From NCBI GenBank assembly GCA_046758505.1, contig JBHIAH010000047.1, positions 1 through 19,191 on the forward strand: a stretch of 19,191 bases of DNA. Direction: 5' to 3'. Shown piece by piece: positions 1 through 17,308 of the stretch. The notes beneath the pieces are model-generated. The model had not been told where the DNA came from. It saw only the letters and a program-made list of their open reading frames with translations, and ran no database searches. The stretch comes from Candidatus Methylomirabilales bacterium. GTDB lineage: Bacteria; Methylomirabilota; Methylomirabilia; Methylomirabilales; CSP1-5. The translations under genes and the position numbers were made by a program. Each line of letters opens with the position of its first letter. Position 1 is the first letter of the stretch.

Positions 1-40
1 CCGTAGGTGCATGGGAGCCCTACCCAGCTCCCACAAAGAG

Positions 41-81
41 AGGGGCGAGAACTCAAAAGGTTCTTCGCCCCTTGTCTTTTT
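41..81 (+). terminator. GC-rich hairpin with T-rich tail, probable intrinsic terminator
   Basis: AGGGGCGA-GAAC (41-52) pairs with GTTC-t-TCGCCCCT (60-72), followed by TGTCTTTTT. It lies about 110 bp beyond the stop of the minus-strand HIT gene. Confidence 0.55.
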
Positions 82-187
82 GAGTCTTAGAGCGGCCTCG
101 CGCACAGCCCGAAAAGAGTCGGCGGGACAGGCTGTTTTGTGATGCCCTTTTTTGCGGTTGGACCGAAAATACGACTGAGATGAACAC

Positions 188-610
188 TTAGGGGGGCGTA
201 CAGGCCTGGCGGAGTGTGGCGGCGAGCCCCTCGAGACTCTCCGTCCCCCGCATCCGGGCGATGCTCTTCATGCTCCCGCCTCCGTCGGCCGGATACCGGG
301 GGATGATGTGGACGTGGACGTGAAAGACTTCCTGCCCCGACGCCTTGCCATTATTGACGCCCAGATTGAAGCCCGCCGCGCCCATGGCCTGCTGCACTTT
401 CCCCGCCACCAGGGCCGCCACCTGAAACAGCCGCCCCGCCGCTTCGGCTGGCATCTCGGTCAATGTCGCGTAATGCTCGCGGGGGATGACCAGCGTGTGC
501 CCCGGGGTGCAGGGGAAGATGTCGAGGAAGGCCACCGCCCCCTCGCCGTCATAGATCGTGTGCGCGGGTCGCTTCCCTTGGACGATCTGGCAAAAGAGGC
601 ATCCGGTCAC
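188..610 (-). CDS. HIT (histidine triad) family nucleotide hydrolase, HINT-like
   Basis: CLFC at the N-terminus, FLDIFP..PGHTLVIP, GFNLGVNNG..GQEVFHVHVHII (HxHxHxx triad). Start moved to GTG at 610, which overlaps the upstream TGA (GTGA 607-610). Confidence 0.93.
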   Translation of the reverse strand: MTGCLFCQIVQGKRPAHTIYDGEGAVAFLDIFPCTPGHTLVIPREHYATLTEMPAEAAGRLFQVAALVAGKVQQAMGAAGFNLGVNNGKASGQEVFHVHVHIIPRYPADGGGSMKSIARMRGTESLEGLAATLRQACTPP

Positions 611-1743
611 TCTGCGCTCCGCCCCCTCAACTCCCCCACGTGGAGGGGAACCCACTCCACGATCTGCAGCCCGAAACCCTCGAGGCCCACGATGCGCCGA
701 GGGTTGCTAGTCAAGAGCCGGATCCGACTCAGCCCCAGGTCGACCAGGATCTGGGCGCCGACTCCGTATTCCCGAAGGTCCATCCGCGCCTGTGGGGTCC
801 CCGCAGACTTGGGTCCTCCGGCCTCCGTGAGATGACTGGTCCATCCCACGCCGCCCGAGGCCTCCCGGATATACACCAGCACCCCCTTGCCCGCCTTGCC
901 GATGCATTCGAGGGAGGCTTCGAGTTTCCGTCCGCAATCACAGTGGAGCGACCCGAGGGCATCGCCGAGCAGACACTCCGACTGAACCCTCACCAGGATC
1001 TCTTCCGCCGCCGTCACCTCCCCGAGGATCATGGCCAGATGATGCCGCCCGTCCATCTGGCTTTCGTACAGGATGCCCCGGAACGTGCCAAACCGGGTGG
1101 GAAAGGTGGTGCTCGCGATGCGCTTGACGAGCTTCTCCCGCCGCATCCGAAAATCGATGAGCGCCTTGACGGTCAGGCTCGCCAGGCCGTGGCGCTCGGC
1201 AAAGGTGTGGAGCTCGGGAAGGCGCGCGGCTGCCCCATCGTCCGTCAGGATCGCGCAGAGGACCGCTCCCGGGTAGAGGCCGGCCAGGCGACACAGGTCG
1301 AGGGCCGCCTCGGCCTGGCCGGCGCGGGTCAGGATCCCCCCCTCCTTGGCCCGAAGCGGAAAGATGTGGCCCGGCCGCACCAGATCCTCGGGGCGAGCTT
1401 TCGGATCGACCAGCGTCTGGATCGTTACAGCCCGATCATAGGCAGAAATGCCGGTCGTCGTCCCCGCCCTGGCATCCACCGAGACACAGTAGGTGATGTC
1501 ACCGGAGACCGGCTGATCCGGCACCATGACCGGGATCCTCAGAGCCTCGAGGCGTTCCCCGGTGAGGGCCACACCGATAATCCCCCGGGCCTCCCGGGCC
1601 ATAAAGTTGACCGCATCGGAGGTCACCCGCTCGGCTGCCAGGGTCAGCACCCCCTCACTTTCCCTGGCCTCGTCGTCGGCCAAAACCACCATCCGCCCTT
1701 CCCGGACGGCCCCGATTGCCGTTTCCACCAAATGGTCGGTCAC
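607..1743 (-). CDS. RibBA-like fusion (DHBP synthase domain + GTP cyclohydrolase II domain) with degenerate active sites
   Basis: DDEARESEG, GTTTGISAYDR and RPGHIFPL (RibB fold); LVRVQSEC..GD..CDCG, DLREYGVGAQIL and LLTSNP (RibA fold). GTG start at 1743 overlaps the upstream TGA (GTGA 1740-1743); 378 aa. Symbol withheld because catalytic residues are substituted. Confidence 0.9.
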   Translation of the reverse strand: MTDHLVETAIGAVREGRMVVLADDEARESEGVLTLAAERVTSDAVNFMAREARGIIGVALTGERLEALRIPVMVPDQPVSGDITYCVSVDARAGTTTGISAYDRAVTIQTLVDPKARPEDLVRPGHIFPLRAKEGGILTRAGQAEAALDLCRLAGLYPGAVLCAILTDDGAAARLPELHTFAERHGLASLTVKALIDFRMRREKLVKRIASTTFPTRFGTFRGILYESQMDGRHHLAMILGEVTAAEEILVRVQSECLLGDALGSLHCDCGRKLEASLECIGKAGKGVLVYIREASGGVGWTSHLTEAGGPKSAGTPQARMDLREYGVGAQILVDLGLSRIRLLTSNPRRIVGLEGFGLQIVEWVPLHVGELRGRSAE

Positions 1744-2726
1744 GGTCCCTCCTCGACAGCGGCCCGGATTGCCCGGAGGTGGGCTTCGGGAACGTCCAGG
1801 GGGACCACGCATCCCGGGGCCAGAATGTGGCCGAGGCCCCCGGTCTGCGCCAAGGCATCCTTCACCTGGGCCCGCACGGCCTCCTCGGGTCCGTCCCGGA
1901 GGGTCTCGACCTCGTTGAGGCCTCCTACCACGGCACCACGGTAGAGCCTCTGCGCCTCCCCGAGTGAGGGCGCGGTTCGCCGGTCGTGCCAATTGATGGC
2001 CGGAAGGGGATACGTTCCCATCACCTCGAACGGAATGTCCACGCCGTGGACGTGCAAGACCGAGAAGGAACTCCGCCCGGCGACCTGCCCCAGGACCTGC
2101 CGGTCGTACGGTTCCGCGAACCTCCGATGCTCGTCGGCGGTCAGGAAACCGGCTGCCGCCACCTGCGTGGCAAAGAAAATCCCGTCCCCTCCCGCCTGAA
2201 GGCAGGCGGCTGCATACCGACTCATCGTCTCGGTGATCACCTCGAGGGCTCCCTCAATCAGTGCAGGCTTGTCCCGGAGGTCCGCCAGGAATCGCTTATC
2301 CCCCGCGAGCTTTCTCGCGATGGAGAGAGGGCTAAAGATCGTCTGAAGGACCGGCGCGTCGTCCCGGCGGCCCTTCACGATCTCACGAAGACACTGAAGC
2401 TCCCGACCCAACGCCCCCTCCTCAAGATTCAGGGGACGGATCTGCCCCCAGTCGGCGGGACGCTTCACCGCGTGATCGACGCAGACCCGGGAGCCGCCGA
2501 CGTCCCCGCGGTACGCGACCCGGCAGCCCCAGTCCTCCACTGCATAGACCCCGGTGGGCATGACCTTGATGAAATCCAGATCGTAACGCGCGTGAAAGCT
2601 GAGGAGTGCCTGGGCCAGCGCGGACGGGTCCTCGTCGAGCTCGGGAAAATGACGCCAGAAGCTCACCGGGGTTCGGTCCACCGCTTTTCGCCCGAGCGCC
2701 CTTTGGATCCGCTCCGCCTTTGTCAT
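1740..2726 (-). CDS. Uroporphyrinogen decarboxylase/MtaA (methylcobamide:thiol methyltransferase)-fold protein, not canonical HemE
   Basis: ERI..AL....VDRTPV, PVLQTIFSPLS, AGGDGIFF, LHVHG, VVGGL, ILAPGC. It lacks the HemE MRQAGR and NLGHG motifs. Confidence 0.85.
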   Translation of the reverse strand: MTKAERIQRALGRKAVDRTPVSFWRHFPELDEDPSALAQALLSFHARYDLDFIKVMPTGVYAVEDWGCRVAYRGDVGGSRVCVDHAVKRPADWGQIRPLNLEEGALGRELQCLREIVKGRRDDAPVLQTIFSPLSIARKLAGDKRFLADLRDKPALIEGALEVITETMSRYAAACLQAGGDGIFFATQVAAAGFLTADEHRRFAEPYDRQVLGQVAGRSSFSVLHVHGVDIPFEVMGTYPLPAINWHDRRTAPSLGEAQRLYRGAVVGGLNEVETLRDGPEEAVRAQVKDALAQTGGLGHILAPGCVVPLDVPEAHLRAIRAAVEEGP

Positions 2727-2756
2727 CTCGCCTCTGCCTTGGTCAGCACATTCCGC

Positions 2757-2953
2757 CAGTGCCCCTCCAACTAACTCCTCCTAAGGACCCCAGGGCTCCG
2801 CGAGGGGCACTGAGGGGTTGTAGGGGAGAGGCTCCCCTACGCCTGGGGGTGCTCAGCGAGGCGGACGCCGAGCGCCGAAGGGGGGCCTGCCCCCCTAGCG
2901 GAAGTGCCGCACCAGCGTGGAATGCTAGTGAGAAACAGTTGGTGCGGCACTAG
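2757..2953. repeat. Cluster of inverted repeats, MITE/REP-like
   Basis: CAGTGCCCCTC (2757-2767) pairs with GAGGGGCACTG (2802-2812). GTAGGGGA/TCCCCTAC hairpin at about 2820-2840. AGTGCCGCACCAGC (2903-2916) pairs with GTTGGTGCGGCACT (2938-2951) at 13/14 positions, followed by AG. Confidence 0.65.
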
Positions 2954-3056
2954 TCCGCCGGCCAAGCTCTCAGACATCAGCCTTCAGCAATCATCCTCCC
3001 ATGCCCAAAGGAAATTGAGAACACGCTTTTTCTCAATCCTTCATAAATCCCAATGT

Positions 3057-3086
3057 ATCATAGAGACGGCCCGGAAGGGTTGTCAA
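3057..3086 (-). promoter_or_regulatory. Sigma70-type promoter for the URO-D/ribBA-like/HIT operon
   Basis: Minus strand TTGACA (3086-3081), 18-nt spacer, TATGAT (3062-3057). Confidence 0.6.
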
Positions 3087-3135
3087 TGCCTCGGTTGGGA
3101 AGGAATACGGTCGAGCAATGGGCGGAGCGGGCGGA

Positions 3136-3164
3136 TTGACAACGCTCAGGCACCATGCTATCGT
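3136..3164 (+). promoter_or_regulatory. Sigma70-type promoter for clpB
   Basis: TTGACA (3136-3141), 17-nt spacer, TATCGT (3159-3164) preceded by an extended -10 TG. Confidence 0.65.
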
Positions 3165-3205
3165 GGTTTTAGCCTTATTTTTCGTTCTGTTGAGAGGGAC
3201 CCCCC

Positions 3206-5787
<2,582 letters not shown>

Positions 5788-5803
<16 letters not shown>

Positions 5804-5927
5804 TTCAGGCTGGAGAGCTTGCACTCCATGGTTCAGGGTGCATGGTTCATGGCTCTTGGAAGACGTGGGATTTACTACCCTGAACTCTGAACCCTCAACC
5901 CTGAACGATCCACCCTGAACCACGAAC
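5788..5927. repeat. Inverted heptamer tandem array (GGTTCA[G/T] units, then CCCTGAA units)
   Basis: GGTTCAG AGTTCAT AGTTCAG..CATGGTT CAGGGTG CATGGTT CATGGCT, then CCCTGAA CTCTGAA CCCTCAA CCCTGAA..CCCTGAA CCACGAA. Confidence 0.85.
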
Positions 5928-5937
5928 GGGGTTTTCG

Positions 5938-7125
5938 ATGCAGGCGTTGGACGGCATCAAGGTGATTGATCTCTCTCGGATTCTTGCGGGACCGTTCTGC
6001 ACCCTGACCCTGGGCGATATGGGGGCCGAGGTCATCAAGGTGGAGAACCCGGATGGAGGAGATGACACCAGAGGCTGGGGCCCCCCTTTCATCGACGCCG
6101 AAAGTGCGTACTTTCTCAGCATCAACCGTAGCAAAAAGAGTATCACCCTGAACCTCAAGACCGATCGAGGGAAAGGAATCCTGCAGGCCTTACTGAGACA
6201 GGCCGATGTCCTGGTGGAAAACTTCCGCCCGGGCACATTAGACAAGCTCGGGTTCAGCTACGAAGCAGTCCAACAGTTGAATCCCCGCCTCATCTACTGC
6301 TCCATCTCTGGCTTCGGACACACCGGTCCGGAGACGCAGCGGCCAGGCTACGACGTGATTGTCCAGGGGGAAAGCGGGGTCATGAGCCTCACCGGCTTTC
6401 CAGACGGCCCCCCCGTCAAGGTGGGGGTCTCGATCGCAGACATCGTTGCTGGCATGTACGGCGTCCAGGGAATCCTGGTGGCCCTTGTTTCCCGGGAGCG
6501 GAGTGGAAGGGGGCAGAAAGTCGACATCGCGCTTCTGGATAGCATGATTTCCCTCTTGACCTATCAGGCCGGCATCTTTTTTGCCACCGGCCAGAGTCCA
6601 AACAGAATGGGAAACTTCCATCCCACCATCACCCCTTACGAGCCCTTCGAGGCCCAGGATGGCTACTTCAACGTGGCCGTCGGCAACAATGTTCTCTGGG
6701 CTCGCTTTTGCCGAATCCTCGGCCGGGAGGATCTGATGAACGACCCCCGATTTGCCACGGGGACGAAAAGGGTAGAAAACCGGGAACTGCTGCGGCCGAT
6801 CCTGGAGAAAGAGTTCAAGACCCGCTCGGTCCAAGAATGGTTACATATCTTGAACGAAGGGGGCATCCCCTGTGGGGCCATCAACTCTTTAGCCGAGGTT
6901 TTCACCAGCGCGCAGGTGAAAGCCCGAGAGATGATTCTCGAGGTTCCCCATCCATCCCTGGGAACGGTAAAGGTGACGGGGGTGCCGGTGAAACTCTCGG
7001 GCACTCCAGGCCAGATCAAGCATCCGCCCCCACTCTTGGGGGAACATACTGAGGAGGTTTTACAGGCCTGGCTCGGCATGTCCGCAGCGGAGATTCACGA
7101 GCTGCGCGGGGACGGAGTGATCTGA
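5938..7125 (+). CDS. Family III CoA-transferase (CaiB/BaiF, formyl-CoA transferase-like)
   Basis: LDGIKVIDLSRILAGP, GAEVIKVE, NRSKKSITLNLK, ADVLVENFRPG, NPRLIYCSISGFG, PGYD, catalytic SIAD, PPLLGEHT. Confidence 0.95.
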   Translation: MQALDGIKVIDLSRILAGPFCTLTLGDMGAEVIKVENPDGGDDTRGWGPPFIDAESAYFLSINRSKKSITLNLKTDRGKGILQALLRQADVLVENFRPGTLDKLGFSYEAVQQLNPRLIYCSISGFGHTGPETQRPGYDVIVQGESGVMSLTGFPDGPPVKVGVSIADIVAGMYGVQGILVALVSRERSGRGQKVDIALLDSMISLLTYQAGIFFATGQSPNRMGNFHPTITPYEPFEAQDGYFNVAVGNNVLWARFCRILGREDLMNDPRFATGTKRVENRELLRPILEKEFKTRSVQEWLHILNEGGIPCGAINSLAEVFTSAQVKAREMILEVPHPSLGTVKVTGVPVKLSGTPGQIKHPPPLLGEHTEEVLQAWLGMSAAEIHELRGDGVI

Positions 7126-7532
7126 TGTCAGAACCTGTTGCCATTGCTATTGCGATCGCGATCGGCCTCATCGCCATTGCCGTGGCAGCAGCGGTTTTCG
7201 CCGTCTTCCCCTTGCTCCGCCAGGCCCGCGAGACGCTGCGGCGGCTAGACAACTTGATCCAGTCGGCAGAGGGCGATGTCCGCCTCACCGTGGCCGAGGT
7301 TCGGGAGGCAGTTCAAAACCTGAACCAGATCTCGGGAGCGGTCCAGAAGGACATGGGCAAGTTGAGCGGCACCGTCGAATCGGTGGAGCGGTTCGGCGAG
7401 ACACTCCGAAACACCAACGACATTATCCGGACCACCATTCATCCCCGTCTCCTCTCCTTCGGGGCCCTCCTCGTCGGACTCAAGACGGGAAGCTGGTACC
7501 TCTTACGGAAAATCTTTTTGAAGAGGAGGTGA
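7125..7532 (+). CDS. DUF948/YtxG(YoxC)-like membrane-anchored coiled-coil protein
   Basis: N-terminal TM helix followed by a heptad-rich helix; TGATG overlap with the upstream gene; immediately precedes a YtxH-like gene. Confidence 0.7.
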   Translation: MSEPVAIAIAIAIGLIAIAVAAAVFAVFPLLRQARETLRRLDNLIQSAEGDVRLTVAEVREAVQNLNQISGAVQKDMGKLSGTVESVERFGETLRNTNDIIRTTIHPRLLSFGALLVGLKTGSWYLLRKIFLKRR

Positions 7533-7538
7533 TCTCCA

Positions 7539-7835
7539 ATGAGTGAGGACCGTGGATTCGGTGGGGCGGCCTTGACGTTGGCCTTTCTTCTGGGCGGGGC
7601 GTTCGGGGCGCTCGTGGCCCTGCTCAACGCTCCGGAATCGGGAAAGCGCACCCGCGTCCGCATCCGCCGCCTGACCGACGATCTCCAAGAGCGGGCCGTT
7701 GACGTCGCCGAAGAGGTTCGAGAGCGGGTTGACGAGGCCGTAGACCAGGGCCGCGAGGCCATCCTCTCCGCTTTTGAGGCGGGAAAGGAGGCCTTTCAGC
7801 GGGAACGCACGAAGCTCACCTCGTCTTCCTCATGA
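7539..7835 (+). CDS. YtxH domain-containing protein
   Basis: FLLGGAFGALVALLNAPESGKRTR signature followed by a charged helix; GGAGGTG RBS. Confidence 0.88.
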   Translation: MSEDRGFGGAALTLAFLLGGAFGALVALLNAPESGKRTRVRIRRLTDDLQERAVDVAEEVRERVDEAVDQGREAILSAFEAGKEAFQRERTKLTSSSS

Positions 7836-8917
7836 ACGGGCAACAACGACCGCCGCATCGGTGCCCGGGACGGCCATCCCGGGCACCATGCTTTTTTGCC
7901 CCGGTTGCAGGAGCCCGATTCGCCGCGGCAACAGGTTGCTCGTTGCTCGTTGCCCTCTTGCTGAGCCTCCAGGGGACAGCCCTCTCGTGCGAGGGGCAGC
8001 CCTGCGACCGAGACTTTCACCTGGAAGCGGCTCAGGAGGTCCGGCTGCCCCATGGCGGGTATCTCCGGGAGGCCTCGGGGCTCACACAATTCGCCGGAAC
8101 GCTCTGGACGGTCGCAGATAAGAGTGACGCCGCCATTTATCGGCTGAAGCTTCCAGGCCGGGACACAGTGGTCACCGCCCAGGAAGTCCCGCTCGCCATC
8201 CCCCCACCGAACCGCAAGGCGGTGCGGCGGTGCGGGGACCGTCGGCGAGGCCGCCTCGATCTGGAAGGGATCGCGGCGGGTCCGGGTGATTTCCTCTCTC
8301 TCCTCTCGGAATCGTACCGGGCCGTGCTCATCACCCGGGTGGATGACCCGAGGGGCCCCGCCCCGCGAGCCACCGTTCAGGAGATCCTCTGCATTCCCGG
8401 GCACAATCAAAGCAGGAACGATGGCGTGGAGGGATTGAGCGGCTTTCCCGGAGGGACGCTCGCCCTGGAAGAGGGAAAGGGTTGGCCGACGAAGAGACTC
8501 TACCGCTGCCGCTTCCCGAAACGCCGATGCACGCCCCTGCTCTCCCTCGTCTTGAGCGGGCGAACACCCGACCTGACCTCGCTCGATCCCCAAGGGACCA
8601 GGTTCCTGGTCCTGAACACCTTCTGGGGATGGTGGACGCGCTTCCACAAGATCTGCGAAATACACGGAGACGATCCCACCCCCAAAGCCTGCCTGCTCGA
8701 TTTGGCCCAGGTGAAGGCAACGGCGAGGGAGCGGGCGGATCTTCCCGCGTCGTTTCGGCAAGAAGGGGGAACGAACTACGAGGGGATCCACTTCGATCCA
8801 GTTACCGGACGGCTCTATCTCATCAATGATAATAACGCCTTCTGGAACCGGCGTTTCACCGGAGACGCCGAACGCGAGCCCACCCTCCTCCTCATCTTCC
8901 GACTAAAGAGGGACTAG
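7832..8917 (+). CDS. Secreted beta-propeller-like protein (SdiA-regulated/YjiK or phytase-like esterase family)
   Basis: Hydrophobic signal LLVALLLSLQGTALS; repeated blade motifs EASGL..LWTVAD, DLEGIA, GVEGL, NYEGI..LYLIND. The start codon is uncertain (ATGA overlap at 7832). Confidence 0.6.
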   Translation: MNGQQRPPHRCPGRPSRAPCFFAPVAGARFAAATGCSLLVALLLSLQGTALSCEGQPCDRDFHLEAAQEVRLPHGGYLREASGLTQFAGTLWTVADKSDAAIYRLKLPGRDTVVTAQEVPLAIPPPNRKAVRRCGDRRRGRLDLEGIAAGPGDFLSLLSESYRAVLITRVDDPRGPAPRATVQEILCIPGHNQSRNDGVEGLSGFPGGTLALEEGKGWPTKRLYRCRFPKRRCTPLLSLVLSGRTPDLTSLDPQGTRFLVLNTFWGWWTRFHKICEIHGDDPTPKACLLDLAQVKATARERADLPASFRQEGGTNYEGIHFDPVTGRLYLINDNNAFWNRRFTGDAEREPTLLLIFRLKRD

Positions 8918-9633
8918 CGACTGACAAAATCGCGGGCCTCGAGGGACTGGCCGGTCACGTCACGGGAGGCGTCGGAGGCGAGATAGAGAAAGACGGGGGT
9001 GATCTCCTCAGGCGTCGGCAGGGTGAGGGGGTCCTCGTCGGGATAGGCCGTGGCCCGCATGCCAGTGCGGGTCCCACCCGGATTGACGGCGTTCACGCGG
9101 ATGTGGCGAGGCGCCAATTCGGCCGCCAGCAGCTGGGTCAGTCCTTCGAGTCCAAACTTGGAAGCGGCGTAGGCCCCCCAGCGCGGTTTCCCGATGCGAC
9201 CGACGCCCGAGCTCACATTGACGATCGAGCCCCCGCCGGCTGCAATTATCAACGGCAGGCAGGCTTTGACGACGAAGAACGGTCCATGGAGATTGACGGC
9301 CACCACCGCCTCCCAGTCGGCTTCCGGATATTCGAGGATAGGTACCCGGGGACCGAGGAGCGACGCGTTATTGACCAGAACATCCAACCGCCCGAATTGC
9401 CTCTTGATCTCGCCAGCCATCCCCTGAACCTGCTCTCGATCGGCCACATCCACCTGAAGCGGCACGGCGCGTCCCCCCCCTTCCCGGATCTCGGCCGCCG
9501 CCGCTTCGAGCCGCTCTCGGCCTCTGGCCGTCACAACGACGGCGGCCCCCTCCCGCGCATAGGCAGCTGCGACCGCCTTGCCGATGCCTTGACTGGCTCC
9601 GGTGACCAGGGCCACCTTTCCCTCAAGCCGCAT
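8914..9633 (-). CDS. Short-chain dehydrogenase/reductase, YciK-like
   Basis: TGASQGIG, NNAS, YAASK, NPGGTRTGMRATAYP.EDP; the C-terminus resembles E. coli YciK. Confidence 0.93.
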   Translation of the reverse strand: MRLEGKVALVTGASQGIGKAVAAAYAREGAAVVVTARGRERLEAAAAEIREGGGRAVPLQVDVADREQVQGMAGEIKRQFGRLDVLVNNASLLGPRVPILEYPEADWEAVVAVNLHGPFFVVKACLPLIIAAGGGSIVNVSSGVGRIGKPRWGAYAASKFGLEGLTQLLAAELAPRHIRVNAVNPGGTRTGMRATAYPDEDPLTLPTPEEITPVFLYLASDASRDVTGQSLEARDFVSR

Positions 9634-9726
9634 GCAACCCCCTTGTCAACAGCAGGATCCCTCTGCTATCGTTCTTCATGAGCTTTCCGTTGCGCATTTC
9701 GCACATCACACCGAAAGGGAGGAGAC

Positions 9727-10038
9727 ATGGGCGAGTTCGTCAAGGTCGCTGAAACCAAAGATGTCGCTGTCGGAACGGGAATCCTGGTGGAACTGAACGG
9801 AGAGCGGATCGCGCTGTTCAACGTGGACGGCACCTTGTTTGCGATTGACGATACCTGTACCCACTCGGGCGGGCCCCTGTCCGAGGGGGAGTTGGAGGGG
9901 AGCGTGGTCACCTGTCCCTGGCACGGGGCCCAGTTCGATGTCAAGACCGGCGAGGTCACTGGGCCACCCGCCCCCGAGCCTGTCACGAGTTACCGCGTGA
10001 AGGTCGAGGGGGCCGACATCCTCATCGAACGCCCATAA
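9727..10038 (+). CDS. Rieske [2Fe-2S] ferredoxin (dioxygenase ferredoxin/NirD-like)
   Basis: CTH...CPWHG..FD..TG ligand boxes; GGAGGAG RBS. Confidence 0.95.
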   Translation: MGEFVKVAETKDVAVGTGILVELNGERIALFNVDGTLFAIDDTCTHSGGPLSEGELEGSVVTCPWHGAQFDVKTGEVTGPPAPEPVTSYRVKVEGADILIERP

Positions 10039-10060
10039 GCGACACAAGGAGGAACAGGCC

Positions 10061-10435
10061 ATGAGGCTGAATCTGTGGTCTGCTGCCAGCGCGATCCTTC
10101 TGCTCCTTGTTGCCCATCCGGCGCTTGGCGTAGATTATACCAGTAAGGTCAAGCTCAGCCAACAGGACACGTACGCGTGTGGGATGACCCACCTGCACGT
10201 TCCCGGATACGCCAAGAATACGGCGGATGTGACCCTCACGGCCATTCAGGTCGAGGGCCGTGTCCTCGACACGGAGGGAAACCTGTTGGCCACCAAGGTG
10301 GTCCCTGTCATGGCCAAGGAGCTTCCGCCGGGAGAATCCGCCGCCTTCGACCTGGAATTCGTCGAAGTGACCCAACCCAACTTTGGAAAGGTGGGCGACA
10401 TCGTACTCACGGTGGTCCAAGCCCTTGCCCGATAG
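10061..10435 (+). CDS. Secreted FxLYD-like small beta-sandwich protein
   Basis: Signal peptide; GYAKNTAD..L..IQVEGRVLDTEGNLL..LPPGESAAFDL pattern; AGGAGG RBS. Confidence 0.65.
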   Translation: MRLNLWSAASAILLLLVAHPALGVDYTSKVKLSQQDTYACGMTHLHVPGYAKNTADVTLTAIQVEGRVLDTEGNLLATKVVPVMAKELPPGESAAFDLEFVEVTQPNFGKVGDIVLTVVQALAR

Positions 10436-10474
10436 CATGACACATCGGGTAGCAAACGTGTAAGTGCCTGTAAC

Positions 10475-11341
10475 CTACCACATCACCGCTGGCGCCGTCT
10501 TGGTCTCATCCATCAGGGCGCAGGGCATCCAGGGTGCGTTGTGCGCATGTCCCGTTCGTCCCTTCCGATCGACCAGGATGATTCCGCCCTCGCCCGCGCC
10601 CCGCTCGGCCAGGATTGCCATCGCCATCCCCGCGGCGTCCACCGGATGGCGGTTACCCCTCAAGAGATCGACGGCCGTCTTGGCCAAAACCACCCGGATG
10701 ATGGCCTCGCCATAGCCCGTAGCCGAGGCCGCACCCACCTCCTGATCGGCGTACGTCCCAGCACCGATCACGGCGCTGTCCCCAACCCGGCCGGGCCGCT
10801 TGCCCGAGAGACCTCCTGTCGAGGTGGCGGCCGCCACACCCCCGGACCCATCCACCGCCACCGCACCAACCGTCCCACCCCTCTCCCCTGCCTCCGCTTC
10901 CCATCTTGCCCGCTGCCGGTCGGTCACGAGCGCCTCCGGGGCGCACACCTCTATCCCGACCTCACGGGCAAACTGGGCCGCCCCGTCCGCCACCACCAGA
11001 ACGGACTGTCCCTCCTCGAGAACCCGCCGGGCAAGCCGGATGGGATTTCGAACATTCCCGACCGCGCCCACCGCCCCGGCGCGGAGGGCCCGCCCCTCCA
11101 TGACCGAGGCGTCCATCTCGACCCCCCCCGCCGCGTTCAGGACGGAACCCCGCCCGGCGTTAAAGAGAGGGTGGTCTTCCAAGAAGGCGACTGCCTCCTC
11201 CACCGCATCCAGCGCCGACCCATCCTGGAGCAGGCATCGCCATCCCGCAAGGGCCGCCCCTCGGCAACCCTCCTGCCGCGCCTCCCGGTCCGCTTCCGCG
11301 AGAAGCCCGGCACCACCGTGGACGACGATGACCGGCTTCAT
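10475..11341 (-). CDS. iaaA: Isoaspartyl peptidase/L-asparaginase (Ntn hydrolase)
   Basis: IVVHGGAG, LEDHPLFNAGRGS, EMDASVM, nucleophile GTVGAVA, ATSTGG, GRVGDS, SATGYGE. Confidence 0.93.
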   Translation of the reverse strand: MKPVIVVHGGAGLLAEADREARQEGCRGAALAGWRCLLQDGSALDAVEEAVAFLEDHPLFNAGRGSVLNAAGGVEMDASVMEGRALRAGAVGAVGNVRNPIRLARRVLEEGQSVLVVADGAAQFAREVGIEVCAPEALVTDRQRARWEAEAGERGGTVGAVAVDGSGGVAAATSTGGLSGKRPGRVGDSAVIGAGTYADQEVGAASATGYGEAIIRVVLAKTAVDLLRGNRHPVDAAGMAMAILAERGAGEGGIILVDRKGRTGHAHNAPWMPCALMDETKTAPAVMW

Positions 11342-11532
11342 GTCGCCGGCTCCTCAGGGGAATCCTCCACCCCTCTGTCGACTTCCCGCTCCACGACCTG
11401 CAGCGGTTTTAAGATGATATAGCCCCCCTCTACCCCGATCTCCAGGAGATCCCCTGGCCGGAGCATCAACTGTTTCCTGAGCTTTGCCGGTATCGTGACC
11501 TGTCCCCGATCCTTCAAGATTACCCGGTTCAA
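11338..11532 (-). CDS. AbrB/MazE/SpoVT family DNA-binding protein
   Basis: RGQVTIPAKLRKQLMLRPGDLLEI...IILKP; TTG start behind GGAGGT; ATGA overlap with iaaA. Confidence 0.88.
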   Translation of the reverse strand: MNRVILKDRGQVTIPAKLRKQLMLRPGDLLEIGVEGGYIILKPLQVVEREVDRGVEDSPEEPAT

Positions 11533-11566
11533 TCAGAACCTCCGTTGGAAAATACGAATTATTGAA

Positions 11567-11636
11567 ATTTTGACACATTTTTTGCTTGCGTCAAGCAAAA
11601 TTTGGCCTTGCCACCCCACAAGGGCTCGGGTATCCT
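11567..11636. promoter_or_regulatory. Divergent promoter region with a palindromic operator
   Basis: Palindrome TTTTGCTTG-cgt-CAAGCAAAA (11580-11600). Minus strand TTGACG-16-CAAAAT (11594-11567). Plus strand TTGCCA-17-TATCCT (11608-11636). Locally AT-rich. Confidence 0.55.
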
Positions 11637-11776
11637 TGTTTGGACTCCAGGATGCTCGAGCAAGTCTCGAACAGCGGGCATCAAAACCTTCACACTCCCT
11701 TGGCATTCTGAGAAATCTTCACTTCCAAGAGAAGGAGACGGGATTACCCGCCTCAATTTTCAGGCAGGCATCGGCG

Positions 11777-12313
11777 ATGGAAGTCTACCTCAGTGAAAAC
11801 GCCCTCATCGGGCTACTGGTCTCCACTATTGAGGTCTACCGGCGGGAATGTTTTGGCATCCTCCTGGGCCACAGCACCGCCGACCGCGTCTTTGTCGAGT
11901 TTGCCGTCCCGTACCAGACGGCCAATCGAAAGTACCGGCAAGTCCACATCGACTGGAAGCGAAGTCAGCGGGTAGAGCAGGCGGTCCATAGCACCACCCG
12001 CTGGGAATGCGTCGGGGACTATCACTCCCATGCCATGTACGGGGAGAGCCGCGCCACCATCCAGCTCTCAACAGAGGACAAACAGTACTTCGGTGATGGA
12101 ACCACCGGGATCGTGGTGGCGATCAACGATATCGTCAAACCGAGACCCTGGGGCTACGTCAAGGGGGGGACTCTCTCGGGGGCGGTAAACGGCTATTCGA
12201 TCCGGATTGCCGCCTACTATAAATCCAACGATCACGTCGAAAAGGCCAATATCATCTGCCCGTATGCCATCGGCTTCATGGAGAAGCGACAAGACCTGCT
12301 CCGGGAGCGATAG
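11777..12313 (+). CDS. Stand-alone JAB/MPN (Mov34) domain metalloprotein
   Basis: ECFGILLG, VGDYHSH and S-x2-D (STED). ATG at 11777 chosen because the longer ORF (from 11495) overlaps abrB and the promoters. Confidence 0.82.
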   Translation: MEVYLSENALIGLLVSTIEVYRRECFGILLGHSTADRVFVEFAVPYQTANRKYRQVHIDWKRSQRVEQAVHSTTRWECVGDYHSHAMYGESRATIQLSTEDKQYFGDGTTGIVVAINDIVKPRPWGYVKGGTLSGAVNGYSIRIAAYYKSNDHVEKANIICPYAIGFMEKRQDLLRER

Positions 12314-12417
12314 TGCCGGTCCAACTATTTGTGCCAACTTGTGCGCTCTCCTCGCTCACGACCCTTGCAACGCGGCAGGCCGTTCAAATTCGGCTTGGCA
12401 CGTTGGAACGGCACTAG
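12311..12417. mobile_element. MITE-like element with about 15-bp terminal inverted repeats
   Basis: TAGTGCCGGTCCAAC (12311-12325) vs GTTGGAACGGCACTA (12402-12416), 14/15 complementary; inner GTGCCAA/TTGGCAC; TA at both ends; no convincing internal gene. Confidence 0.55.
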
Positions 12418-12462
12418 CAGATGCGCGTCCCGGGAAAGGTCAGGCCGCGCGCGTCGAAGGGC

Positions 12463-13272
12463 GTGGGTGACCTCAAGCCCTATCTGGATCGCCTGTACGC
12501 CACATACGATCTGAGCTTTCTCCCGACGTCGGCCCTCAAATTTCCCCGCCGCTATCACCGACCCCAAGACATCGAAGTGGTCGGGTTGATCGCTAGCTGC
12601 TTTGCGTACGGCCGGGTGCAGGGATTCACCCCTCCGATCGACACCCTCCTCGAGGCGCTGGGGCCGCACCCCGCCCAATTTCTCCTGCAGTTCGACCCCA
12701 GGCGCGACGCCGATCGCCTCCGCGGTTTCGCCTACCGCTTTCAAACCGCCCGGGACGCCGCCTGCCTGCTCTGGTTCCTCCGGCAGGCCCTCGACCGCCA
12801 CGGTTCCCTCCGGGCCCTTTACCTTTCCGGCTACAGTGAGCGACACGAGGACACCCGACCGTCGCTGGCGACCTTCGTCGACCGCCTCCTGCAATCGGAC
12901 CCGCGACCGGTCTATCGCAAGGGCCATCTCTCCAGGGGAATGTACCACCTTCTCCCCTCGCCAAGGCGCGGGGGGACCTGCAAGCGACTGCACCTCTTCC
13001 TCCGCTGGATGGTCCGACGAGACCACATCGACTTCGGCCTCTGGCCCGAACTCAATCCGGCGAAGCTGCTCATCCCCCTGGACACGCATGTGGCCCACGT
13101 CGCAGAGCGGCTCTGCCTCACCCGCCTCAAGAGCCCCGGCCTCCCGATGGCCCTCGACATCACCCGGTCCCTGAAGCGGTTTGAGCCGACAGATCCGGTC
13201 AAGTACGACTTCGCCCTCTGCCGGTTGGGCATGCTGGGGGACGGTTCAGGGTTGAGTGTTCATGGTTCATAG
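12463..13272 (+). CDS. TIGR02757 (DUF2400) family protein
   Basis: DIEVVGLIAS.FAYGRV, KRLHLFLRWMVR.D.IDFGLW, LLIPLDTHV, DPVKYDFAL. GTG 12463 preferred; ATG 12421 is an in-frame alternative. Confidence 0.9.
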   Translation: MGDLKPYLDRLYATYDLSFLPTSALKFPRRYHRPQDIEVVGLIASCFAYGRVQGFTPPIDTLLEALGPHPAQFLLQFDPRRDADRLRGFAYRFQTARDAACLLWFLRQALDRHGSLRALYLSGYSERHEDTRPSLATFVDRLLQSDPRPVYRKGHLSRGMYHLLPSPRRGGTCKRLHLFLRWMVRRDHIDFGLWPELNPAKLLIPLDTHVAHVAERLCLTRLKSPGLPMALDITRSLKRFEPTDPVKYDFALCRLGMLGDGSGLSVHGS

Positions 13273-13500
13273 CTTGCAGTTCATGGTTCAGGGTACATGG
13301 CTCATTGGTGGCTGGTGACTAGTGAATGGTGACTGGGGAAAGCCACCAACCACCAAGCACGAGTCACCCTTCACTTTTTTCTTGTCGGTCGTCGGTTAAT
13401 CGTGATCAGTCATCAAGCCCTGAACGCTTAACCCTGAACGATCTTCCCTGATTGCTGAACCCTGAACTATGAACCATGAACCGCGTCCCGTGAACCATGG
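13243..13500. repeat. Nested inverted heptamer arrays
   Basis: Outer GGTTCA[G/T] units (13243-13303) and complementary [C/A]TGAACC units (13418-13500). Inner TGGTGAC-type units (13306-13340) and ..CACCA-type units (13342-13375), followed by a T run. Confidence 0.85.
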
Positions 13501-14433
13501 ATGAGGACGCGGAAGAGACGGATGCGACATTCCAAGAGTGCCGACGGCCACAAATGGTCCCGCGCTGGGGGACCGCGGCTGGGGGCGCATATGTCCATCG
13601 CCGGGGGGGTAGACAAGGCCTTGCTCCGCGGGGAGCAGGTCGGCTGCGACACGATCCAGATCTTCACCAAGAACAATAACCAGTGGCGCGCCAAGCCCCT
13701 CACGGACCAAGGCATCCGGACCTATCGCGAACAGCGCGACGCGACGGGAATCTGGCCGGTCATCGCCCACGGCGGCTACCTGATCAACATCGCCTCTCCG
13801 AAACGAGACCTGCACCGGCGATCCGTGGAGGCCCTCCGGATCGAGGTGGGGCGGGCGACAGCGCTCGAGATTCCCACCCTTATCATACACCCGGGGGCCC
13901 ACCTCGGGCGAGGGGAGGGAGAGGGGATTCGAAAGGTGATCGAGGGGTTGAACACGATCCTTGAGCGGACCAAGACCTCTCCCGTCACGATCTGCCTGGA
14001 GACCACGGCGGGGCAGGGCTCCAGCCTGGGCTACTGCTTCGAGCACCTGGCGGCGATCCGCGATGGGGTGAGCCAGACCGAACGCCTAGGCGTCTGCGTC
14101 GACACGTGCCATATCTTTGCCGCGGGGTACGAGATCCGGGGCCGGAGGGCATATGAAGAGACGATGCGGCAGCTCCAGGGGGTGATCGGCCTGAAACACG
14201 TCCGATGCATTCACCTGAACGACTCGCAGCGGGCGCTGGGGAGTCGGGTGGATCGTCACGCCCATATCGGCCGAGGGGAGATCGGCCTCGCAGGATTTCA
14301 GCTTCTCGTGAATGATCCGCGCCTCCGACATATTCCCATGATCCTCGAGACCCCGAAGGGGGAGGAACCCATCGCCGCAGACCGCGGCAATCTGGCCGTC
14401 CTCCGCAGCTTGATCAAGGGGGCGTGTGGGTGA
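13501..14433 (+). CDS. nfo: Endonuclease IV (deoxyribonuclease IV)
   Basis: LGAHMSIAGG, QIFTKN, HGGYLIN, HPGAH, LETTAGQG, VDTCHIFAAGY, HLNDS, DRHAHIG.G.IG, ILETP. The start may be ATG 13522. Confidence 0.96.
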   Translation: MRTRKRRMRHSKSADGHKWSRAGGPRLGAHMSIAGGVDKALLRGEQVGCDTIQIFTKNNNQWRAKPLTDQGIRTYREQRDATGIWPVIAHGGYLINIASPKRDLHRRSVEALRIEVGRATALEIPTLIIHPGAHLGRGEGEGIRKVIEGLNTILERTKTSPVTICLETTAGQGSSLGYCFEHLAAIRDGVSQTERLGVCVDTCHIFAAGYEIRGRRAYEETMRQLQGVIGLKHVRCIHLNDSQRALGSRVDRHAHIGRGEIGLAGFQLLVNDPRLRHIPMILETPKGEEPIAADRGNLAVLRSLIKGACG

Positions 14434-14446
14434 CGGGCGGGATCTG

Positions 14447-14986
14447 TTACTGCGAGGGGAAAGACCCGGGGAGACCCGGTGGAAGCGTGAGGTCAAAGCC
14501 GGGGCGACGGGCCGGCAAATCTCGGTTTTCCTGCTCCTCGGAAAGCTGAAAGGCTGACCTCACCCCCTCCCAGCTTTCGGTGGACACCATCATCGCGTTG
14601 TCAATCTTCGGGACGACCGCGGCCGGAACTCGCTCTTTCAACGCCCGCAGGAACTTCTCTTCCTTCTGCGCTGCCGCCTTGGCAATCGCCACGGACCGCT
14701 CGGCGCCGTCCTCGGCGGGAAACAGCCCGTTTTCGATTCGATCGAGAAAGAGCAGGATGCGATCCCGTGACAGCGTGAGGGACTGCACGATCTCCATAAC
14801 CTCGAGGTGCAACTCATCAGGGACGGCTGAGGACACTTCGAGCAGCGACGTGGCATTCTTCTGGGTGAGCTCTTTTGTTTGCTCCCTGGCCTTGTGCAGA
14901 TCCAACGAGGCCGCGGCGACGAGGGTCCCCAAGGCCAGGACGGCCAGGACACCTCCGAAAGCGCCACCGAGATGCCTGCGCGTCAT
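14447..14986 (-). CDS. Hypothetical exported helical protein with an internal repeat
   Basis: GGAGGAGG RBS before ATG 14986; signal-like N-terminus MTRRHLGGAFGGVLAVLALGTLVAAA; 179 aa. Confidence 0.7.
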   Translation of the reverse strand: MTRRHLGGAFGGVLAVLALGTLVAAASLDLHKAREQTKELTQKNATSLLEVSSAVPDELHLEVMEIVQSLTLSRDRILLFLDRIENGLFPAEDGAERSVAIAKAAAQKEEKFLRALKERVPAAVVPKIDNAMMVSTESWEGVRSAFQLSEEQENRDLPARRPGFDLTLPPGLPGSFPSQ

Positions 14987-15123
14987 CGCCTCCTCCAATC
15001 CCCAAGACTGTGTATCATCGGAGGGCCCCGCCGCCGGAGCCACCCCCTCTCTTCAACGAACGGGACGGTAGGTCGATTCCGTCACCCTCTCCGCCGCGGA
15101 ACCGGCGGAGCGTTCACGAAACA

Positions 15124-15480
15124 TTACGCCGGGGGCCGAAATCCCGGCACGCCGACGACGGCCTCGTTGATCTTTGCCGCCAGAATGAAATCGCTTTCGG
15201 TCAGGCCGTTGATCTTGTGGGTCCAGATCTCGATCGTGGCCTTCCCCCACCCAAAGCTGATATCGGGATGATGCCCCTCCTGCTCGGCGATCGCGCCCAC
15301 GCGATTCACGAAGTGCAGCGTCGCCTTGAAGTCCTTGAAGCGGAAGGTCTTGCGGAGGTGGTGCGCCTCTACCACCTCCCACCCCTCGACCTGCGCGATC
15401 AAGGGGGCGATCTCTCTACCCGTGAGAGGCGGCGTCCCCCCCTTACACGGGACACACGACTTATGCGCCAACTGCGACAC
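15124..15480 (-). CDS. phhB: Pterin-4-alpha-carbinolamine dehydratase
   Basis: CVPC.GG..PL, F.FKDF, AEQEGHHPDI, WTHKINGLTESDFILAAK; GTG start behind GGAGGT. Confidence 0.93.
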   Translation of the reverse strand: MSQLAHKSCVPCKGGTPPLTGREIAPLIAQVEGWEVVEAHHLRKTFRFKDFKATLHFVNRVGAIAEQEGHHPDISFGWGKATIEIWTHKINGLTESDFILAAKINEAVVGVPGFRPPA

Positions 15481-15773
15481 GACAACCTCCTCGCAAGGGG
15501 GGGCCCTCTCCCCGGCTCATGCTCATCATACCCACGTCCGGCCGCGGCGGCAAGTCTCCTGAGCCCCGGAAGGTAATTCGACGACCCTCTCTTGATAGCC
15601 CGCCTCCTGCTCCCCCCTTTCGCCCGTACCTTCCCCTGCATCCGGCACCGCCATTGCCTGGGGGGGGTGTGAGAACCAGGCGATCGACGGGAGCCGGAAC
15701 AGACAAAAACATGTTTGCCATTCCGTATCAATAAGTTGCCATACATACCTTCATCCACCCCTTAAAAAAAACG

Positions 15774-15802
15774 TTGCACCCCCCTAGATTGTCTGGTATA
15801 AG
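15774..15802 (+). promoter_or_regulatory. Sigma70-type promoter for the M23 peptidase gene
   Basis: TTGCAC (15774-15779), 17-nt spacer, TATAAG (15797-15802) preceded by TG; A-tract upstream. Confidence 0.55.
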
Positions 15803-15827
15803 CCATGCACCTGTAAAGGAGGGACAG

Positions 15828-17180
15828 GTGCGGGACCTCAAGTCACAGAAGAACATAGAGCGGGTCTTGGGAAGGCAGCGACCCGCGCTGAAGAAGTTGA
15901 AGAAGAGGTTCGGGGGACCGGGATCCGGCTTCTTTGTCGCGGGACTGCTCTTTCTTTCCGCCCTGGTGATCTCCTCGCTTCTTCCGGTACGCAAACAGAC
16001 ACCGCGATCTCCCGAACGGCAGACCTCGCCTACCGCAGGAGTCCCCCGGGTGGCCGAGTCCCTCTCGAGGGCCCTTCTCCACCCGTCGCACCGGCTGATC
16101 CACGGCTCGGTTCGACGCGGGCAGACCTTCGCCCAGGCCCTGACGGCCGAAGGCCTCTCCCCGCGCCTCACGCATGAGATCGCCCGAGCCCTCCGCCCCC
16201 ATCTCAACTTCCGCAAGATCAGGCCGGGAGCGACATTTCAGGCAAGCCTGAATGCGAGCGAGGCGCTCCTGCATTTCGTGTATCGGGCCTCTCCCCTCGA
16301 GATTTATGAGGTGACTCGGACAGAGACCGGCTATCGGGCGGTACAGCGCGTCGTCCCTGTGGAGCGACGCGTGGAACGCGTTGCCGGCAAGGTCACCTCG
16401 TCCCTCTTCGAGAGCATGGAGGCTCTCGGGGAACGACCCGAGCTCACCCTCCGCTTCGTCAATATCTTCCTCTGGGACTTCGACTTCAACAGCAGCGCGA
16501 GACCCGGGGACGAATTCCGGTTGCTCGTGGAGAAGGAATACAGCGGGGACACGCTCGTCCGCTACGGGAAAATCCTCATCGCGCAGTATGAGAATCGGGG
16601 AAAGACCCACACCGGGATCTATTTTGAAGCCCGGCGCGGCACGGGGGACTTCTATACCCCGAACGGCAGGTCCGTACGCAAGACCTTTCTCCGCTCCCCA
16701 TTGCGATTCACCCGAATCAGTTCCCGCTATACGCACCGCAGACGCCACCCGATCTTGGGCGGGGTCAGACCCCACCTGGCCGTGGATTACGCGGCCCGGC
16801 CGGGGACGCCGGTCTGGGCCGTCGCCGACGGCGTGGTCCTCTCGGCCGGGTGGAATAGGGGCAACGGCAAGTCGATTCTCATCCGGCACCGAGGTGGGTA
16901 CCGGACCATGTATAACCATCTATCCAGGTTCGCCAGACGTATTCGAAGGGGAACCCGGGTTCGGCAGAAGCAGGTGATCGGCTACGTGGGATCCACGGGC
17001 CTCTCCACGGGACCCCACCTGGATTACCGCGTGATCAAGAATGGTCACTTTGTGAACCCCCTCAGGCAAAAATTCATCCCGGGGGACCCCATCCCCAGGT
17101 CCCAGCGGGCCAGGTTCCGGCGTCTCCGCGACCGCCTCCTGCAGAAGCTGCAGTCACCTGAACTCGCCTCAGCGAAGTAG
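15828..17180 (+). CDS. M23 family peptidoglycan DD-endopeptidase (MepM/Csd3-like), membrane anchored
   Basis: TM helix, OapA-like region, RISS.Y..RRHPILG..RPHLAVDYAA..GTPV, YNHLS, GSTGLSTGPHLDY; GTG start behind AAGGAGG. Confidence 0.92.
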   Translation: MRDLKSQKNIERVLGRQRPALKKLKKRFGGPGSGFFVAGLLFLSALVISSLLPVRKQTPRSPERQTSPTAGVPRVAESLSRALLHPSHRLIHGSVRRGQTFAQALTAEGLSPRLTHEIARALRPHLNFRKIRPGATFQASLNASEALLHFVYRASPLEIYEVTRTETGYRAVQRVVPVERRVERVAGKVTSSLFESMEALGERPELTLRFVNIFLWDFDFNSSARPGDEFRLLVEKEYSGDTLVRYGKILIAQYENRGKTHTGIYFEARRGTGDFYTPNGRSVRKTFLRSPLRFTRISSRYTHRRRHPILGGVRPHLAVDYAARPGTPVWAVADGVVLSAGWNRGNGKSILIRHRGGYRTMYNHLSRFARRIRRGTRVRQKQVIGYVGSTGLSTGPHLDYRVIKNGHFVNPLRQKFIPGDPIPRSQRARFRRLRDRLLQKLQSPELASAK

Positions 17181-17220
17181 CGCGCCAATCGCGTCGACCG
17201 ACAACCAACTACCCAAGACA

Positions 17221-17274
17221 TTTCCAATTTCGAAATTCGAATTTCGAACTCCAGGCGACTGTGAACCGTGAACC
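17221..17274. repeat. Short heptamer tandem repeats between convergent genes
   Basis: TTTCCAA TTTCGAA ATTCGAA TTTCGAA (17221-17248) and GTGAACC GTGAACC (17261-17274). Confidence 0.65.
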
Positions 17275-17308
17275 GGTCAAATAGGGATCGGTCATCGAGT
17301 TCTTGGAG

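Follow-up and report, generated by a model that had tools for sequence, protein, structure and literature searches.

A RibBA paralog predicted to have lost both catalytic activities is conserved behind a URO-D-fold gene in a family of Methylomirabilota

Bifunctional RibBA carries a 3,4-dihydroxy-2-butanone 4-phosphate (DHBP) synthase domain and a GTP cyclohydrolase II domain, and paralogs in which one of the two is dead have been described, such as RibBX of Proteobacteria and RIBA2 and RIBA3 of Arabidopsis. Here we describe a RibBA-like gene in DNA of a Candidatus Methylomirabilales bacterium (GenBank assembly GCA_046758505.1, contig JBHIAH010000047.1, positions 1 to 19,191; this whole stretch of 19,191 nucleotides (nt) is called the window). 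The gene lies between a gene for a protein of the uroporphyrinogen decarboxylase (URO-D) fold and a gene for a histidine triad (HIT) protein. Judged from its residues, it appears to be dead in both domains, and it is under purifying selection across a bacterial family. In a literature search that was thin on subscription journals, neither a RibBA dead in both domains nor a URO-D/RibBA gene pair was found described. Mycobacterial RibA1 is probably degenerate in both domains.

RibBX resembles the paralog in that its dead cyclohydrolase domain is kept by selection and a regulatory role has been proposed for it (PMC10012899). In RibBX, however, the DHBP synthase is active and the zinc-binding residues are reportedly absent, whereas the paralog has lost DHBP synthase residues and kept the zinc cysteines. 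RIBA2 and RIBA3 likewise have a disabled domain and accompany a bifunctional RibBA, but each of them retains one activity (PMC3509567), and the paralog appears to retain neither. Mycobacterial RibA1 (Rv1940) is a second ribA-type gene that is unable to replace RibA2 (PMC11302143, PMC13748933); it is described as a putative standalone cyclohydrolase (PMC11302143), and its neighbours differ from those of the paralog. The plant vitamin B6 protein PDX1.2 is a dead vitamin-enzyme paralog that serves as a regulator. Its fold is unrelated and its hetero-assembly has been shown (PMC6829848, 10.1101/717082), whereas hetero-assembly of the RibBA paralog is only proposed. For the URO-D-fold protein, the closest described proteins are the MtaA/CmuA methylcobalamin:coenzyme M methyltransferases (PDB 4AY7) and HemE, which have the same barrel. 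The MtaA ligand positions align with this protein, but it has HxH instead of HxC and a His at the Glu position, and it scores far below the NCBIfam cut-offs.

The RibBA-like open reading frame (ORF) is located at 1743-607 on the minus strand and encodes 378 amino acids (aa) with matches to PF00926 (E 4e-71) and PF00925 (E 1.5e-48). It shares the two-domain architecture of bifunctional RibBA, represented by PDB 4I14 and by the copy on contig C8 of the same genome, to which it is 57% identical, and it keeps the zinc motif and R128. It differs from bifunctional RibBA in the absence of D42, E174, T154, E92, R94, K101, Y105 and the C-terminal KLGH tail, and in its place outside a rib operon. Its scores were below the cut-offs of TIGR00505, used for GTP cyclohydrolase II (124.8 bits, cut-off 205.85), and of PRK14019, used in the comparison with RibBX (364 bits, cut-off 513).

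Residues were compared between 34 paralogs and 82 intact RibBAs of the lineage, using what we take to be the E. coli residue numbers; most of the residue roles given below are likewise presumed. Two paralog-like proteins with internal deletions (P0036, P0038), one with a frameshift (P0045) and one that is a different second copy (P0060) were left out. In the DHBP synthase domain, D42 was replaced by V, L, M or A in 33/33 paralogs and E174 by A, G or T in 34/34, whereas both residues were kept in 82/82 intact copies. T154 was changed in all 34 paralogs (A, V or G in 33, S in 1). Residues kept in the paralogs included E38 (31/33) and E40 (32/33) of the acidic loop, T107, D113, H136, R150 and E155, and C67 was largely kept. 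Metagenomes supplied 58 distant intact RibBAs; all 56 that could be assessed for D42 kept it, and E174, EGR, K101 and Y105 were kept in all 58. Two substitutions were rejected as marks of degeneration: the metal ligand H153 is Q in 33/34 paralogs and also in 79/82 otherwise intact copies (P0040-P0123), and H51 is Q in the 58 distant, otherwise intact RibBAs, all of which carry Q because the search pattern selected it. In published work, the metal site of DHBP synthase is Glu39/His154 (PMC9305975), and Asp-43 of the Vibrio cholerae enzyme contacts O3 of ribulose 5-phosphate (PMC5228156).

The cyclohydrolase domain of the window paralog keeps the CX2GX7CXC zinc motif (C257, C268, C270) and R324. 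This motif and R128 are features of GTP cyclohydrolase II (PMC10366380), and the paralogs keep the zinc cysteines in 34/34 cases and R128 in 33/33. R49 and E53 were also kept in all 34 paralogs, and K154 was changed to R. R94, K101 and Y105 were lost in 34/34 and E92 in 31/34; the segment with EGR, K101 and Y105, which binds the base, was 7 residues shorter and variable. The KLGH tail was found in 0/34 paralogs and in 82/82 intact copies. W301 and H304 were newly invariant (34/34) inside an otherwise variable stretch. From the lost residues we infer that the DHBP synthase and GTP cyclohydrolase II activities have both been lost and that the paralog is a predicted pseudoenzyme. An AlphaFold model of the paralog had a mean predicted local distance difference test (pLDDT) score of 72.7, with low values at 296-324; the underlying alignment was shallow, so these values were not read as a sign of disorder.

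When trans and cis loops were defined as in PMC5228156, the paralog kept 7/7 conserved columns of the loops that a subunit lends to its partner and 15/33 in the loops of its own active site (Fisher p 0.011, the columns not being independent). This pattern would fit a rather doubtful but reasonable explanation modelled on PDX1.2, in which the dead copy regulates or stabilises the active RibBA as a hetero-oligomer by donating its intact trans loops, and its place in the operon only gives expression. The explanation also agrees with the intact ribBA carried by all 12 genomes that have the paralog, and with the report that the dead X domain of RibBX regulates the RibB domain (PMC10012899). The trans loops would, however, also be kept in a homodimer, and they are retained in an independent dead copy. 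No paralog, moreover, was seen in the vicinity of rib genes; in the genus, in the sister-genus genome G014 and in the metagenome loci, it invariably stood behind the URO-D-fold gene.

The separate intact ribBA that the initial annotation had raised was present on contig C8, apparently in the order ribD-ribE-ribBA-ribH-nusB, with the neighbours named by sequence reading. A true hemE with the RQAGR motif was found on contig C66 (E 8e-118). The paralogs formed one old clade (support 100/99). Three other families had second ribBA copies of their own, with a cyclohydrolase domain lacking EGR but keeping the zinc cysteines. The DHBP synthase sites of the second copies were intact where covered, fully in genome G023 and partly in G016, and lay outside the coverage in G019 and G034. 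A common origin for the whole set of second ribBA copies of this order was rejected (approximately unbiased test, p 7e-5, with six rows only 22-31% filled), and a position of the paralog as sister to the family's own rib-operon copy was not rejected (p 0.54). As read from these sequences, ribBA duplication with loss of the cyclohydrolase is recurrent in the order, and only the paralog family has lost the DHBP synthase residues as well.

Some of the second copies had further features. In G016 (L149, L150) the two functions looked split: the rib-operon ribBA had a dead DHBP synthase loop and an intact cyclohydrolase, the second copy had intact DHBP synthase sites where covered and a dead cyclohydrolase, and the pair resembled plant RIBA2/RIBA3. 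A PNPOx-like (PF01243) gene came after every one of the EGR-less second copies at L145:6258-8363, L147 and L153, which are from two other families, and the second copy of G023 was located behind an aldehyde ferredoxin oxidoreductase cluster.

The initial annotation had considered that the paralog might be a decaying duplicate, with a ratio of nonsynonymous to synonymous substitution rates (dN/dS) near 1. Pairwise Nei-Gojobori estimates for 10 genus sequences, one of them from the unpublished genome G007, gave a median of 0.15 (range 0.10-0.25, 45 non-independent pairs), with 0.12 in the first domain and 0.17 in the second. Its neighbours had the same values (URO-D-fold gene 0.147, HIT gene 0.163), and no stops were found inside paralog matches within the genus. 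With dN/dS of about 0.15, the paralog is therefore not decaying. Internal deletions or a frameshift in 3 of 39 paralog-like database proteins (P0036, P0038 and P0045), which may be assembly errors, would speak for decay, but the dN/dS values, the absence of stops in the genus and the single old clade make it highly improbable.

The distribution of the paralog was surveyed by scoring a paralog profile over 251 genomes of the phylum, with at most 7 candidates scored in each genome. Scores of at least 597 bits were obtained in 12 of the 15 genomes of the family, and those in all other phylum genomes were at most 552 bits. In G005, a family genome without the paralog, the contig stops 21 nt past the URO-D match; G010 (68% complete) and G013 (79% complete) were without both the paralog and the URO-D ortholog. 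A HIT gene stood directly after the paralog in 11/11 genus loci. Among 80 metagenome loci there were 22 paralogs, with the URO-D gene upstream in 21/21 and HIT downstream in 21/21 loci that had DNA on the respective side. In G014, the URO-D/RibBA-like pair (60-64% identity) lies at another locus, away from clpB, and has retained the promoter and the overlap. HIT was not behind the paralog there, and the best HIT match of that genome (37%) was located elsewhere. The expected co-conservation of the trio thus held in the genus and the metagenome loci, and in the sister genus it was reduced to the URO-D/RibBA-like pair.

The URO-D-fold protein (ORF 2726-1740, minus strand, 328 aa, PF01208 E 3e-35) gave a model with pLDDT 94.6. 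The closest structure was MtaA 4ay7 (TM 0.87), followed by HemE (about 0.80). When aligned to MtaA, H225, H227, H247 and C306 fell at positions that we take to be its zinc ligands. The HxH...H...C arrangement was found in the window protein and in 34/35 close orthologs. In a wider survey, a length filter left 141 of 150 representatives. Of these, 137 had H225, 101 had H and 35 had C at position 227, 78 had H247 and 132 had C306, and W24, H26, K54, T129 and W246 were each present in at least 134. The window protein has neither the HxC...E...C zinc site of MtaA/CmuA (TIGR01463 82.9 bits, cut-off 235.4) nor the HemE signature, having SFWRHF where HemE has RQAGR. The corrinoid cap domain PF02607 was not found in genome G000, which is 96.8% complete, and no MtaC-like corrinoid protein was among the four of seven PF02310 loci read in it. 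The activation of thiols by zinc, which the initial annotation had mentioned for MtaA-fold enzymes, is left unsupported by the His-rich metal site and the missing PF02607. Zinc sites that alkylate thiols are rich in Cys, and those rich in His usually serve to activate water or to polarise a substrate. Hydrolysis, hydration or decarboxylation is therefore predicted to be more likely for this enzyme than thiol methylation.

The profile of the URO-D-fold protein found 888 clusters (50% identity) at E<=1e-30. No fused or longer forms (679-2000 aa) were found at E<=1e-20, which is weak evidence, and the ESM Atlas returned only URO-D and cyclohydrolase clusters. Neighbourhoods of up to 5 kb were read for the best 80 of 496 genome hits, 70 of which were outside the genus. 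In these 70 loci, ribD, ribE and ribH were absent near the URO-D-fold gene. A family-5 ATP-binding cassette (ABC) binding protein was encoded directly downstream on the same strand (e.g. L094:5984-7477) in 31 of the 67 outside loci with at least 300 nt downstream, many of their genomes being kin. These binding proteins were at least 70% identical among copies. The paralog occupies the slot that the binding-protein gene holds in those loci, and the binding protein was found in 0/15 family genomes at E<=1e-100. The initial annotation had suggested that the three genes may form a pathway for a purine-, pterin- or flavin-related metabolite, or a complex with the RibBA-like protein as scaffold. The confinement of the trio to one genus and the URO-D-fold gene standing without the other two in 70/70 outside loci count against a purpose-built pathway of three enzymes, and the importer binding protein behind this gene in 31/67 weakens it further; a scaffold or other non-catalytic role may still hold.

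Other neighbours of the URO-D-fold gene were less consistent. A SIS protein was encoded nearby in 9/70 loci. A link to aromatic ring cleavage was rejected: cupin, LigA and LigB were found in 8, 7 and 6 of the 70 loci, and the sole PF02900 match of G000 was weak and located elsewhere. The loci with these genes include L099, L101, L110, L115, L125 and L128. A link to folate or pterin was also rejected, as folB/folK neighbours occurred in only 2/80 loci and were treated as local synteny.

The third gene, the HIT ORF (610-188, minus strand), encodes 140 aa with a match to PF01230 (E 8e-30), an intact HxHxH triad, an N-terminal CxxC and the PDB relatives 3imi and 1y23; its score against PRK10687 was 56.6 bits (cut-off 206). 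When 32 loci were searched, the HxHxH triad, followed in Hint proteins by two hydrophobic residues, was found in 30/31 operon copies, the other copy being cut short, and CxxC and PGH were found in 31/31. On these motifs, the protein is predicted to be an ordinary Hint-type nucleotide hydrolase.

The operon could also be explained by a re-tooled cyclohydrolase domain, which comes close to the initial annotation. In this explanation, which we consider unlikely, a new zinc or phosphoanhydride-cleaving enzyme would produce inside the cell a compound that is imported in other lineages. The URO-D-fold enzyme would convert this compound, and HIT would remove a nucleotidyl by-product. The kept zinc cysteines, R49, E53 and R128, the change of K154 to R and the new invariant W301/H304 are consistent with it, as are the place of the paralog in the importer's gene slot and the separable pyrophosphate-cleaving half reaction of RibA (PMC13151069). 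Even less likely in our view is its more specific form, in which the duplicate, with the guanine-recognition segment gone and the W301/H304 pair new, would make or release a phosphorylated metabolite for conversion by the URO-D-fold enzyme and clearing by HIT. HIT, however, is absent from the operon of G014, and the paralogs have a shorter, variable base-binding segment and no C-terminal tail. The H51-to-Q change gives no sign of new chemistry, since it occurs in the otherwise intact RibBAs mentioned above, and the DHBP synthase acid/base positions are now occupied by small or hydrophobic residues.

The reading that we favour, though tentatively, is that the operon was assembled stepwise and that the RibBA pseudoenzyme is a ligand-binding or regulatory partner of the neighbouring metalloenzyme. 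The starting point would be the URO-D/MtaA-fold enzyme, which is widespread and has a His/His/His/Cys metal site; it most probably works by Lewis-acid chemistry as a hydrolase, lyase or decarboxylase. Its substrate may be a small molecule taken up in related lineages via the dedicated ABC binding protein. An old ribBA duplicate would then have been captured right behind the URO-D-fold gene in the family ancestor. It would have lost both catalyses and retained the fold, the zinc site, the dimer-donated loops and the arginines that contact phosphate. As a non-catalytic subunit or sensor, it would most likely bind a phosphorylated metabolite (a sugar phosphate or a nucleotide) and tune or feed the neighbouring metalloenzyme. 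The ordinary Hint-type HIT hydrolase would have joined later, in one genus only.

Several observations weigh against this favoured reading. Neither ribBA nor HIT was found near the URO-D-fold gene in any of the 70 loci outside the genus; therefore the enzyme does not need the paralog. The kept residues may be structural, as the independent rib-operon copy of G016 with its dead DHBP synthase loop keeps 7/7 trans-loop columns, and the EGR-less second copies of the three other families keep their zinc cysteines too. A control operon of the window, made up of a CoA-transferase gene and two small ones, has survived in G014 as well, so the persistence of the pair over such a distance is no proof of shared function. 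The family members are kin and amount to about two independent observations.

The control operon, which looks unrelated and is equally persistent, also speaks for an improbable explanation in which three functionally unrelated genes share one promoter and the paralog has an independent role or weak residual DHBP synthase activity. Synteny on the clpB side, which is kept across the genus, is in line with this explanation, as are the largely kept E38, E40, C67, H136 and R150 and the commonness of the H153-to-Q change among intact copies. D42 and E174, however, are invariant in 82/82 intact relatives and in every distant one that could be assessed (56/56 and 58/58) and were lost in every paralog, and the URO-D/RibBA-like pair stayed together, whereas clpB and HIT did not.

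The layout of the operon was largely as first annotated. Three genes joined by GTGA overlaps at 1740-1743 and 607-610 were confirmed in the sequence, and the relatives align from the same starts. The URO-D/ribBA-like junction was an NTGA overlap in 10 of 11 relatives and a 2-nt gap in the other one; the ribBA-like/HIT junction was NTGA in 8/8 genus loci with a complete ORF. The sigma70-type promoter was also borne out, as TTGACA-18-TATGAT at 3086-3057 on the minus strand; the clpB promoter at 3136-3164 on the plus strand faces away from it. A promoter scan of 4 kb gave 2 sites, compared with 0.4 +/- 0.9 in shuffled sequence, and the operon promoter was kept in 10/10 aligned relatives and in G014. 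Both -35 boxes of the back-to-back promoters (3057-3164) are TTGACA, and the arrangement is conserved genus-wide.

The 5' leader is 330 nt, its length being due to the insertion of a palindromic repeat of about 200 nt with inverted repeats (2755-2953). The repeat had 10 other blastn hits in G000 (76-90% identity) and was not found in the leaders of the 10 aligned relatives; it is not a conserved part of the operon, and it looks like an element of the miniature inverted-repeat transposable element (MITE) or repetitive extragenic palindromic (REP) type. It forms multiple hairpins and has a weak match to Clostridiales-2 RNA (32 bits, below the gathering score of 58.6). An Rfam scan of 1-3400 found no family at the gathering score and two weak sub-threshold matches. 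Downstream of HIT, the annotated hairpin (41-72) was supported by folding (-26.9 kcal/mol, computed for 30-90), but its terminator role stays putative, as a terminator scan called 0. The left arm of the hairpin falls inside a 55-nt stretch repeated on contig C14: positions 1-55 of the window are 100% identical to C14:45921-45975, and here, at the edge of the contig, another repeated element ends.

The finding concerns a narrow, uncultured lineage (NC10). A doubly dead RibBA that is kept by selection would imply a non-catalytic or new function for the fold. The orphan subfamily of URO-D-fold proteins is large and is routinely annotated as uroporphyrinogen decarboxylase; the operon gives a handle on this subfamily, and the conserved ABC binding protein gives one for finding the enzyme's substrate. 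If the cyclohydrolase domain has indeed been re-tooled, the operon would represent a new pathway, with a new reaction of the GTP cyclohydrolase II fold and a first function for the orphan URO-D subfamily.

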